Shown here: positions 28,812-32,673 of the stretch, in pieces
Layout: each line of letters opens with the position of its first letter
Numbering within the stretch: the stretch's first letter is position 1
Source: Eledone cirrhosa
Taxonomy: Eukaryota
Assembly (NCBI GenBank): GCA_964016885.1
Contig: OZ024748.1
Coordinates: 51,584,001-51,648,000, forward strand
Direction of reading: 5' to 3'
DNA length: 64,000 nt
Notes under the pieces: generated by a model
What the model was told of the DNA's origin: nothing
Seen by the model: the letters and a program-made list of their open reading frames with translations, nothing else
Database searches by the model: none
Position numbers and translations under genes: made by a program

Positions 28812-31800
28812 CAAATTGGTTTGCCAAATTATTGATGTTCTTTGTGGCTTCACAGATGTCTTGCTCGTATTCTATTTTCTTTTCAATGACAGCGACATTA
28901 AATCCAAAACCGCTAAATTCCACAACAACCATGTAATCCAAAGGCAGCTTGTAGGTTTTTCTTACAGTTGAGAATTCAGCAAATTGCTTCAATTGAAATT
29001 CTTCCAAGAATGTTTTGCTTTCTTTTATACCTGTTCCCAAATGAGGCCATTTTTTCAAAGCCTGTTGGATTTCATTTTCTTTCTCAACTTGAATATAATT
29101 GCATGTATAAAGCATTGTTTTATCATCACTTTCTGGCAATTTCAATTCCCATTTTCCATTTCTCTTACGCAGCCAACTATCAGAGAGAATTAAATCATAA
29201 TATTTTGTATCATAATAAACATCATCAAACGTTTCTTCTGAAACTTGAATGCCTTTTGCTTGAACAAGTTTTTCAACATCAAAATTCTCAATTTCAAATT
29301 TCCGTCTTAACAAAGCAACTTTAGAGATGGAGATTGAGGAATTAGTAGCTGTCAGATTAGATTTCTGGTCAGCCATTGCAGTAATTTTATGCTGAAAAAT
29401 TTGATTCTGAGCAATTGAGGCTTGAATTTTATTATCTCCTCCAGAATTCCATTCAGGAATTTGCTTACTGGAATCAATATTTGATTGATACATCATTGTT
29501 TTCAATTCAGCTCCGAAACTCAAGTCAGTTTCCTTTCCAATTTGGGGTTTAATGAATAAATCTTTGGACTCTATAGTAGTATTGAAACCTTCACCTCGTC
29601 TGGTGTCAAAACCAACTTCAACATTTTGTTCAGATCTCAGACTTTTAGTCTTTAGTTCAGCAGCCTCTCCAATTTTGGGTTTGATGAATAAACCTTGAGA
29701 TTCTATAGTAGTATTTAAACCACCACCTTGTCTGGTGTCAAAACCAACTTCAGCATTTTGTTCAGATCTCAGATTTTTAGTTTTTAGTTCAGCAGCCTCT
29801 CCAATTTTGGGTTTGATGAATAAACCTTGAGATTCTATAGTAGTATTTAAACCACCACCTTGTCTGGTGTCAAAACCAACTTCAGCATTTTGTTCAGATC
29901 TCAGACTTTTAGTCTTTAGTTCAGCAGCTTCTCCTACTTTGGGTTTGATGAATAAACCTTGAGATTCTATAGTAGTATTTAAACCACCACCTTGTCTGGT
30001 GTCAAAACCAACTTCAGCATTTTGTTCAGATCTCAGATTTTTAGTTTTTAGTTCAGCAGCCTCTCCAATTTTGGGTTTGATGAATAAACCTTGAGATTCT
30101 ATAGTAGTATTTAAACCACCACCTTGTCTGGTGTCAAAACCAACTTCAGCATTTTGTTCAGATCTCAGACTTTTAGTCTTTAGTTCAGCAGCTTCTCCTA
30201 CTTTGGGTTTGATGAATAAACCTTGAGATTCTATAGTAGTATTTAAACCACCACCGTGTCTGGTGTCAAAACCAACTTCAGCATTTTGTTCAGATCTCAG
30301 ACTTTTAGTCTTTAGTTCAGCAGCTTCTCCTACTTTGGGTTTGATGAATAAACCTTGAGATTCTATAGTAGTATTTAAACCACCACCGTGTCTGGTGTCA
30401 AAACCAACTTCAGCATTTTGTTCAGATCTCAGATTTTTAGTTTTTAGTTCAGCAGCCTCTCCAATTTTGGGTTTGATGAATAAACCTTGAGATTCTATAG
30501 TAGTATTTAAACCACCACCTTGTCTGGTGTCAAAACCAACTTCAGCATTTTGTTCAGATCTCAGATTTTTAGTTTTTAGTTCAGCAGCCTCTCCAATTTT
30601 GGGTTTGATGAATAAACCTTGAGATTCTATAGTAGTATTTAAACCACCACCTTGTCTGGTGTCAAAACCAACTTCAGCATTTTGTTCAGATCTCAGATTT
30701 TTAGTTTTTAGTTCAGCAGCCTCTCCAATTTTGGGTTTGATGAATAAACCTTGAGATTCTATAGTAGTATTTAAACCACCACCTTGTCTGGTGTCAAAAC
30801 CAACTTCAGCATTTTGTTCAGATCTCAGATTTTTAGTTTTTAGTTCAGCAGCCTCTCCAATTTTGGGTTTGATGAATAAACCTTGAGATTCTATAGTAGT
30901 ATTTAAACCACCACCTTGTCTGGTGTCAAAACCAACTTCAGCATTTTGTTCAGATCTCAGATTTTTAGTTTTTAGTTCAGCAGCTTCTCCTACTTTGGGT
31001 TTAATGAATAAACCTTGAGATTCTATTGTAGTATTTAAACCACCACCTTGTCTGGTGTCAAAACCAACTTCAGCATTCTGATCAGATCTCAGATTTTTAG
31101 TTTTTAGTTCAGCAGCTTCTCCTACTTTGGGTTTGATGAATAAACCTTGAGATTCTATAGTAGTATTTAAACCACCACCGTGTCTGGTATCAAAACCAAC
31201 TTCAGCATTCTGATCAGATCTCAGATTTTTAGTTTTTAGTTCAGCAGCTTCTCCTACTTTGGGTTTAATGAATAAACCTTGAGATTCTATAGTAGTATTT
31301 AAACCACCACCTTGTCTGGTATCAAAACCAACTTCAACATTTTGTTCAGAGATGAGACCTTTAGTCTTTAGTTCAGCTTCTTTTCCCATTTTGGAGCTGA
31401 TGACTAAATGGTTGGGGTCTATTAATGAGTCTGTACTATCCCCTTGTCTTCTATCAAGACCAACTGCAGCATTCTTTTCAGACCATATGTTTTGAGTCTT
31501 TGATTCAGCAGCTTCTCTAATTTTGGGGGCAATGAATAAACCTTTAGATTCTATAGCAGAATTTAAACCACCACCTTGTCTGGTATCAAAACCAACTTCA
31601 ACATTTTGCTCAGGTTTGATATTTTTGATCTTTAATTCAGCTTCTTCTCCAATTTTGGGTTTGCTGAATAAAGATTTGGATTCAATTGATGGAATTAAAC
31701 CACCAGCGTTTCTGGTATCAAAACCAAATTCAACATTCTGGTCAGGTTTGAGATTTTTAGTCTTTAATTCAGCTTCTTTTCCACTTTGGGGAGTGATGAT

Positions 31801-32673
31801 TACATTTTTAGACTCAATTGAAGCATCTAAACCACCACCTTGTCTAGTATCAAGACCAATATTAGCATTCTGTTCAGATCTGAAATTTTTAGTCTCTGAT
31901 TCAGCACTAGATGTAATTTTGGGGGTGAAGGCTAAATGTTTGGACTCATTTGATGAATCTACAGCTGCCCCTTGTCTTTTATCTAGACCAACTGCAACAT
32001 TTCTACCAAACAAGAGATTTTTAATTGTTAAATCAATTGCTTCCTTTCCAATGTTTGGTGTGATGACCAAACGTTTGGACTCAAGTGATGGATCTAAACC
32101 AGCACCTTGTCTTCTATCAAGACCAGCTTCAACAGTCTTCTTAGATTTGAGATCTTTGATCTTTAATTCAGTAGCAGTTTCTCCAATTTTGGGGGTGATG
32201 TCTAAATTTAGGGTTGCGGTTTCTTTAACTGTATCATCAAGTCCTAAGTTGTCAATATCAACTTCAATACTCTTTTGGGACTTGAGCATTATTTCAATTG
32301 TCTCCTGATGTACAACTTCACCCTCGACAAAATCTTTAGCTTTAACAATCACCTTATTTTTGTGAATATCTGAGCCAAGCAAGAATGTTTCCTTTCTATC
32401 AACACTTGGAAAGGTCTCATTTGAATAAAAAGCTTGTTCTTTGAACCCATCACTATCATCAATGCTGCTAGTTTTCTTTTCAGTAACTGAAGAACTCTCC
32501 TTTGAAGGAGTAATTTTTTCCTTGATTGTTATATCTTCTTTAAACTTGTCAGTGTTTTCAATTCTCTCACAAGTATCATTTGCAATCAGATCTGAACGAG
32601 AGAAAGTAGGTCTACTAGTAATTAATTTCTCTTCGGAATGGTCAATGAAGCAGTTAAGAGTAGAATCTTCCAT
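28812..32673 (-). CDS. Large coding exon: acidic N-terminus, 20 x 44-aa repeats and a thiamine-triphosphatase-like CYTH domain (degenerate active site); gene continues after an intron
   Basis: Uninterrupted non-low-complexity ORF. The ATG at 32673 is preceded by an in-frame TGA 7 codons upstream and a polypyrimidine-CAG acceptor (exon start 32735). CYTH/THTPA motifs RKF, FDDVYYDT, DSWLRKRNGKWELKLP, FAEFSTVRKTY and FGFNVAVIE lie in 28812-29320. Donor TTTG|GTAAGT at 28812/28811. Confidence 0.9.
29530..32195 (-). repeat. 132-bp in-frame coding tandem repeat, 20 units
   Basis: G[FL]D[TRK]R motifs at 32116, 31981 and then every 132 bp to 29605. Consensus KPKIGEAAELKTKNLRSEQNAEVGFDTRQGGGLNTTIESQGLFI. 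Confidence 0.97.

Follow-up and report, generated by a model that had tools for sequence, protein, structure and literature searches.

An octopod thiamine triphosphatase gene, likely an orthologue, with a long repeat arm and a CYTH domain that lacks most metal-site glutamates

The locus, its coding exon and its transcripts

We examined a stretch of 64,000 nucleotides (nt) from the genome of Eledone cirrhosa (assembly GCA_964016885.1, contig OZ024748.1, positions 51,584,001 to 51,648,000), referred to here as the window, and in particular a gene on its minus strand that encodes a protein related to thiamine triphosphatase (THTPA), with an acidic N-terminal arm, an array of tandem repeats and a C-terminal CYTH (triphosphate tunnel) domain in which four of five acidic metal-site residues are replaced. 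In the list of open reading frames the corresponding minus-strand frame is open from 32691 to 28597, with an ATG at 32673 and an in-frame stop upstream of that ATG. The initial annotation of this DNA had described a single exon that joins an acidic part, 20 units of 44 amino acids (aa), a linker and a CYTH domain, and this layout holds, with 159 aa, 20 units and about 77 aa for the first three parts. The large exon is not the whole gene: a last exon of 19 codons lies outside the window, 399,794 nt downstream, and once it is added the predicted full protein has 1,306 aa. The features are listed below in the order of transcription, with active-site residues in mouse THTPA numbering.

32674..32737, minus strand: 5' untranslated part of 62 nt that contains an in-frame stop and follows a pyrimidine tract and AG (putative acceptor, from sequence only)
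28812..32673, minus strand: large coding exon from the ATG to the splice donor; 3,862 nt, made up of 1,287 codons and one further nt (phase 1); spliced contigs in three of the four runs examined confirm its 3' end
32197..32673, minus strand: acidic N-terminal arm, aa 1-159, net charge -14; 44-80% identical to Octopus bimaculoides, depending on the sub-region
32632..32649, minus strand: short motif [FY][IV]D[HR]xE, aa 9-14, common to long-arm mollusc THTPAs, predicted docking motif
32254..32421, minus strand: aa 85-140, a conserved block (identical to O. bimaculoides at 45 of 56 residues) in which the motif core recurs at aa 91-95
29554..32196, minus strand: 20 tandem units of 44 aa (132 nt), aa 160-1040; units 1-7 divergent, unit 20 partly so
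29686..31269, minus strand: units 8-19, a homogenised core with 0-8 nt differences per 132 and a mean amino acid identity of 96%
29323..29553, minus strand: linker, aa 1041-1117 (about 77 aa), containing Met1100; identical to O. bimaculoides at 34 of 66 aligned positions
28812..29322, minus strand: THTPA-type CYTH domain, aa 1118-1287; 144 of 170 residues identical to O. bimaculoides
29299..29313, minus strand: degenerate EXEXK motif reading L-L-R-R-K (E7 to L, E9 to R, K11 kept)
29089..29091, minus strand: Gln in place of the conserved E81, which is Glu in 147 of 149 other homologues among the matches listed
28882..28890, minus strand: Val at the position of E157, which by analogy with AtTTM3 E169 would be the ligand of metal site 1; E159 kept
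28810..28811, minus strand: GT splice donor of the 399,794-nt intron

A search for long proteins with a CYTH domain passed one of 487 candidates, and the cluster of this candidate holds two Octopus proteins. The first, LOC106876779 of O. bimaculoides (XP_052829955.1; uncharacterized in RefSeq, 809 aa), matches the window protein in layout, arm, repeat family and linker, but has 8 full units plus partial ones in place of 20, homogenised to another consensus. The second, the thiamine-triphosphatase-like protein of O. sinensis (XP_036366379.1), is a 257-aa model that starts just after the repeats, the arm being absent. Both share the degenerate active site and the tail of the window protein, and Met1100 is common to all three. 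As to whether the architecture is already broadly annotated, a point raised in the initial annotation, it is present in RefSeq (LOC106876779) but without functional annotation, and the names returned for the Octopus proteins carry no mention of a pseudoenzyme or a repeat protein.

In order to examine splicing, we aligned contigs of four of the 24 listed runs (X21, X22, X1 and X8) to positions 28300-29685; none of the runs with this stretch is recorded as RNA. In X21 a single contig of 1,398 nt spans 28810-29651, taking in the CYTH domain, the linker and the greater part of repeat 20, and departs from the genome at the donor, which provides the link between repeats and CYTH that the initial annotation had proposed to look for in transcripts. 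In X22, a DNA run, the contig continues into the intron. Because the intron is skipped in X21, we infer that this run is RNA. Contigs of X1 and X8, which come from two other organisms and other studies, depart at the same donor with near-identical letters and do not reach the repeats. The departing letters of X21 occur once in the source genome, on the same contig and strand and behind a pyrimidine tract and AG; the last exon begins there (C8:51,213,017) and comprises 19 codons, including a split Gly, followed by a stop, in agreement with the Octopus tails. Neither the window nor the 100 kb downstream gave more than chance-level matches when scanned for the last exon (25067 in the window, score 25; L005, score 26).

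Further X21 contigs have loose ends that match units 4/5 and 6/7. The summed contig depth of unit 20 relative to the unique part is about 21-fold in the DNA run (120.6 versus 5.6) and about 19-fold in the spliced run X21 (816.8 versus 43.7), both being rough figures, and therefore the array is present in the spliced run at about its genomic proportion. Over-expansion of the array in the assembly is unsupported, since the depth agrees with about 20 real copies. A decaying pseudogene is ruled out by the intact frame, the spliced contigs in three organisms and the 85% conservation of the domain. A separate observation concerns Met1100 (29374-29400, minus strand), conserved in the three octopods, which follows closely on a T-rich stretch that ends in CAG; this stretch could possibly act as an alternative acceptor for a short, THTPA-sized isoform. 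No loose end was found near Met1100 among 23 listed of 47 contig ends.

The CYTH domain and its metal sites

The C-terminal domain matches Pfam PF01928 (CYTH) with 36.1 bits against a cut-off of 23.2, and its sequence matches in the PDB are mammalian thiamine triphosphatase in five of five cases (best E 5.9e-11). An AlphaFold model of the domain has a mean predicted local distance difference test (pLDDT) score of 88.9 (87-row alignment; residues of the last exon lie outside the model), and a Foldseek search with this predicted model places THTPA structures in the top nine ranks (best E 1.5e-13), the best match being mouse THTPA with a template modelling (TM) score of 0.69. The CYTH/THTPA identity proposed in the initial annotation is therefore borne out by family profile, known structures and predicted fold, and by sequence the domain descends from THTPA and is nearer to animal THTPA than to CyaB-like CYTH domains. 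Compared with mammalian 25-kDa THTPA (PDB 5A64, 5A65, 3TVL), the octopod protein is alike in fold, in sequence, in the basic tunnel residues and in Y39, W53, K65 and Y79, but lacks E7, E9, E81 and E157 and carries about 1,117 extra N-terminal residues including the 20 repeats, its predicted length being 1,306 aa versus the 230 aa given for mammalian THTPA in the available text of PMC8615392.

We mapped residues onto mouse THTPA numbering by an alignment of 152 domain rows, comprising three octopods and 149 other homologues, the latter being the non-octopod sequences among 150 listed of 623 HMMER matches (1.84 billion representatives searched); counts of homologues given here refer to these listed matches. 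The window protein has Leu at E7, Arg at E9, Gln at E81 and Val at E157, positions at which Glu is found in 141, 142, 147 and 141 of the 149 homologues, respectively, and D147 is replaced by Glu. Kept are K11, D37, Y39, W53, R55, R57, K65, Y79, R125 and E159, so that the five basic phosphate-binding residues (K11, R55, R57, K65, R125) are complete and one member of the four-residue acidic patch (E7, E9, E81, E159) is left. The O. bimaculoides and O. sinensis proteins agree with the window protein at all 16 mapped sites. In 134 of the 147 rows (of 152) that are ungapped at the five Glu positions all five are present, and in six a single one is left, three of these six being the octopods. W53 is kept in 144 of 149 homologues, many of them short.

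According to the available text of PMC4641920, metal site 1 of these enzymes is an invariant Glu (AtTTM3 E169), site 2 is formed by the acidic patch, mutation of the metal-site Glu in AtTTM3 or YgiF leads to strong loss of activity, and the thiamine part of the substrate is placed against W53 and Y79. If AtTTM3 numbers are equated with THTPA positions by motif order, both metal sites appear broken in the octopod domain, and the residues predicted to contact the anion and the thiamine remain. The octopod domain departs from active triphosphate tunnel metalloenzymes (TTMs) in its EXEXK motif, in its site-1 Glu (Val in all three octopods) and in its acidic patch. Because the metal-binding glutamates are lost, normal metal-dependent thiamine triphosphatase activity is very probably absent. 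This loss, which the initial annotation had missed, would be the strongest argument for a non-catalytic role, and the structural or scaffolding function that it had considered is plausible in so far as such a role is non-enzymatic.

The domain could still be catalytic, either through a site rebuilt to work with one metal or none or with a changed reaction such as a Vtc4-like phosphotransfer. E159, the Glu at position 147, Y39, K65, R55, R57 and R125 are all present, and basic residues take the place of the acidic patch in Vtc4 (PMC4641920, available text), as Arg takes that of E9 in octopods. However, such basic replacement concerns only one of the four patch positions, and the same text describes the site-1 Glu as invariant in all characterised TTMs, including the polyphosphate polymerase Vtc4, which keeps this residue and the same metal coordination, whereas octopods have Val. 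We consider a retained catalytic function quite unlikely.

Identity to O. bimaculoides is 85% in the CYTH domain (144/170) versus 46% in the repeats and 52% in the linker, and 22 of 39 listed differences (of 40) in X1 fall at third codon positions (p 0.0025). It therefore appears that the domain is still constrained after its burst of change. A word-indexed search with the CYTH part alone passed none of 78 candidates, a blank that reflects low sensitivity since HMMER returned 623 matches.

Repeat array, arm and phylogeny

Tandem Repeats Finder reports a period of 132 with 18-20.3 copies (score 3528), corresponding to exactly 20 units of 44 aa at aa 160-1040 with one spacing of 45. The repeats consist of 12% Gly, 10% Glu, 10% Lys, 9% Leu and 8% Thr with a net charge of +1, in line with the charged, Gly-rich character ascribed to them initially. 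Within the source genome the repeat is confined to this exon (18 of 18 matches), and a profile of the 44-aa unit matched only octopod proteins among the sequences compared (best non-octopod E 0.45 or worse), so that the supposed restriction to one lineage is supported; a search for the repeat among longer proteins passed none of 7,010 candidates, missed the known positive P0002 as well and is uninformative. Identity among units is 96% for the 12 core units of the window and 86% for the last four units of O. bimaculoides, versus 45% between the species, and this combination of high identity within and low identity between species is a pattern of concerted evolution, for which unequal crossing-over would be a route of homogenisation. 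Modelling of the repeat with AlphaFold, proposed in the initial annotation, was run on four units and gave no usable or confident fold (pLDDT 26.7; 11-row alignment), and on this model the repeat tether is probably mostly disordered. The Pfam family KIF21A_2nd reaches a summed score above its cut-off against the repeat without a single passing stretch, which we read as an artefact of summing over repeats. An Atlas search gave a best value of 0.80 for the repeat and no usable match for aa 1-160.

The array might be a tolerated coding minisatellite without function, the working product being the CYTH part, perhaps as a short isoform from Met1100. This reading would fit the copy numbers (20 versus 8), the cross-species identity of 45%, the conservation of Met1100, the 257-aa O. 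sinensis model that begins just after the repeats and the lower depth of the 5' contig in X21. Against it, all 20 units are in frame, of fixed length and with invariant positions; the stretch at aa 85-140, ahead of the array, shows 80% conservation, and the N-terminal motif occurs across molluscs; repeat contigs occur in the spliced run at about genomic proportion; and the listed contig ends include no loose end near Met1100. We regard a functionless array as very improbable.

The arm (aa 1-159) has an isoelectric point of 4.6. At least 24 of the 149 non-octopod homologues have 150 or more residues ahead of the domain, and long acidic arms on THTPA are found in Haliotis (abalone), Patella (limpet), Babylonia (whelk), Lymnaea (pond snail), the bivalves Solemya and Potamilus and the annelid Owenia. 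A motif [IVC][DE][HR]xE occurs within the first 35 residues of 20 of 24 long-arm relatives, versus 0.09 expected by shuffling, in a test that is not independent because the pattern was drawn from the same sequences; D11 and E14 are invariant in 24 of 24 chosen rows. The window protein has the motif at aa 10 and a second time at aa 91, within the block that is 80% identical to O. bimaculoides. Compared with the octopod protein, the long-arm mollusc THTPA-like proteins, together with P0005 and P0006, share the acidic arm, the D[HR]xE motif and the C-terminal CYTH domain, but have no 44-aa repeat, and most of them keep EXEXK. Judged by sequence, the long acidic arm with its N-terminal D[HR]xE motif is mollusc-wide and the repeat alone is octopod-specific; of the newly gained arm envisaged in the initial annotation, it is therefore the 44-aa repeat that is new, the long acidic arm itself being present across molluscs and in an annelid. 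A complex prediction for the N-terminal 36 aa and the CYTH domain (score 0.02, alignments not used) was uninformative.

We built trees on 55, and then on 33, of the 152 domain rows. The three octopods sit on a long stem (1.27 changes per column) with short tips and are sister to P0005 and P0006 at 100/100, these two having an octopod-like N-terminus and all five Glu. Five other degenerate rows, of long-arm or related proteins, fall elsewhere in the tree. A single origin for all degenerate mollusc CYTH domains was rejected in approximately unbiased (AU) tests (p-AU 0.0017 for eight rows and 0.0058 for six rows), in which the groups were set by motif state after the first tree and long branches limit the test. 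Because the forced single degenerate clade is rejected, catalysis has probably been lost at least three times.

Searches of the source genome for another THTPA-type locus gave none in four of four cases (with the domain itself, PF01928, P0006 and a hemichordate THTPA), only top candidates having been scored; the absence rests on single-sequence and Pfam queries, whose counts are lower bounds. The octopod gene is, as far as sequence comparison indicates, likely the THTPA orthologue. The initial annotation had called it a paralog, which is not supported, since it is the only THTPA-type locus found in this genome and stands as sister to two intact long-arm relatives. The second PF01928 match (L003:1435-1662, minus strand; C12:43166548-43166682; 29.8 bits) reads as a short exon belonging to another CYTH gene with several exons, which we take to be CyaB-like.

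Three further observations concern the relatives. In P0048 (Potamilus), P0087 (Lymnaea), P0055, P0082 and P0152, all THTPAs of mollusc type, the metal sites are degenerate as well, apparently through losses separate from that in octopods. P0087 (1,636 aa) has tandem repeats of its own ahead of the domain. P0014, P0035, P0047, P0058 and P0118 are THTPA-like proteins with an extra N-terminal domain, four of them grouped at 99 in the tree, and represent a second type of fusion; the extra domain presumably resembles the AMPK-beta glycogen-binding module.

A proposed role for the octopod protein

We propose that the locus holds a spliced octopod THTPA gene, likely an orthologue, whose CYTH domain, deprived of four of five acidic metal-site residues, would be catalytically dead and would serve as a metal-free triphosphate-binding module on a long, probably disordered tether; we give this reading a probability of about 0.6. 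The predicted ligand is thiamine triphosphate or a similar polyanion. Sequence comparison shows that THTPA of molluscs sits behind a long acidic arm with a D[HR]xE motif, and tree and alignment show that on the octopod stem the domain changed fast, E7, E9, E81 and E157 were replaced, and conservation was then renewed, with Arg at position 9 possibly providing a fixed positive charge in the metal's place. Within the arm the 132-nt unit expanded and was homogenised independently in each species, with 20 versus 8 full copies. The N-terminal motifs may dock on a partner, with the repeats as a spacer of variable length and the dead domain as a ligand sensor, trap or anchor. Octopods would then be expected to be without soluble THTPA-type activity and to build up thiamine triphosphate, a situation reported for birds, fish and pig.

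Dead domains of this kind are known. The tunnel domain of AtTTM1 has lost the ExExK glutamates, binds no metal and keeps a basic tunnel with citrate (PMC9582702, available text), and Med18 and Med20 are further dead tunnel domains (PMC4641920, available text). With Arabidopsis TTM1/TTM2 the octopod domain has in common the loss of the ExExK Glu and the kept basic tunnel; according to the portions of PMC9582702 available, these domains are metal-free and are proposed to bind (tri)phosphate metabolites, but they belong to the plant TTM lineage, are fused to a P-loop kinase and a membrane anchor, and exist beside the active paralogue TTM3. By analogy, the octopod domain may be most like the AtTTM1/2 tunnel domain in its mode of working. 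The octopod gene is real and conserved and, judging by the spliced contigs, expressed. We found no account of the octopod protein, its repeat or the mollusc arm in the literature searched, which left out most subscription papers and all supplements, and the only report on THTPA pseudoenzymes found there is a preprint on Jhc1 (bioRxiv 10.64898/2026.02.04.703868).

The dead domain could instead be a protein-binding scaffold, in the manner of Jhc1 or Med18/Med20, whose basic groove grips an acidic or phosphorylated peptide, with the repeats providing multivalent binding or a structural filament. Jhc1, described in the available part of the preprint as a THTPA-derived structural pseudoenzyme at cilia tips, offers a precedent, in that both proteins derive from animal THTPA and have lost ExExK; the repeats of both octopod species share an invariant G-x-D-x-R, and W53, conserved in many short homologues also (144 of 149 overall), may be structural. 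However, Jhc1, compared here by description only, has also lost its basic residues (the equivalents of R55, R57 and K65), whereas the octopod protein keeps all five of them together with W53 and Y79 of the thiamine pocket. Jhc1 further differs in that it arose by duplication beside an intact Thtpa, is restricted to non-mammalian vertebrates and, instead of an N-terminal repeat arm, has disordered regions in its interior. A scaffold of this kind seems to us unlikely.

Several points weigh against the proposed triphosphate-binding module. With regard to the domain, Y39 and K65, named as the catalytic dyad in the available text of PMC8615392, are intact in the window protein; E159 together with the Glu at position 147 makes a remodelled metal site possible; and fish and pig THTPA are almost inactive according to the same text, so that loss of activity is not unique to octopods. 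As for its history, P0005 and P0006 are taken to be non-octopod cephalopods, and an active paralogue may have escaped notice, since the searches scored top candidates only and the assembly is perhaps not complete. The disorder of the repeat is judged from an alignment of 11 rows, charge and hydropathy put the repeat slightly on the ordered side (0.426 versus a boundary of 0.414), and the invariant G-x-D-x-R hints at more than a spacer. With regard to transcripts, X21 is not recorded as RNA and has the same organism code and study as the DNA runs, with a different sample. Because no single molecule or record spans the array and the 5' contig of X21 is shallower (18.1 versus 43.7), a shorter isoform is also possible.

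Under the proposed reading, octopods would be a new kind of exception, in which a gene under selection has had its metal site dismantled and its phosphate and thiamine pocket preserved. If thiamine triphosphate is bound, the domain would be a natural substrate trap that could be used as a probe and would point to a signalling role. If nothing is bound, the locus would still represent a clean birth of a pseudoenzyme without an evident duplicate, together with concerted evolution of a coding repeat. The mollusc-wide arm motif and the repeated, independent loss of catalysis may indicate an unrecognised tethered or non-enzymatic function in the THTPA family. A more far-reaching version holds that the only thiamine triphosphatase of octopuses became a receptor that binds thiamine triphosphate without metal, on a repeat tether tuned in each species, as an end point of a mollusc-wide, undescribed design of motif-tethered THTPA that lost catalysis at least three times independently; if true, this would make it a dedicated thiamine-triphosphate reader and direct evidence for the compound as a signal, but we consider this version unlikely.

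The remaining observations concern the rest of the window. The last intron of 399,794 nt (C8:51,213,018-51,612,811; window 1-28811) makes the left part of the window wholly intronic; it is unusually long, nested genes or an effect of scaffolding are possible, and it has one gap of 200 N (at L007). Within it, an open frame of 475 aa at 101-1528 (minus strand) carries a reverse transcriptase domain (RVT_1, 89.9 bits) with a PHD finger (26.4 bits) immediately behind it and looks like part of a non-LTR (long terminal repeat) retroelement. Finally, a 22-nt satellite at 20883-22033 comprises 52 copies with 96% matches and has an extreme skew of G over C.

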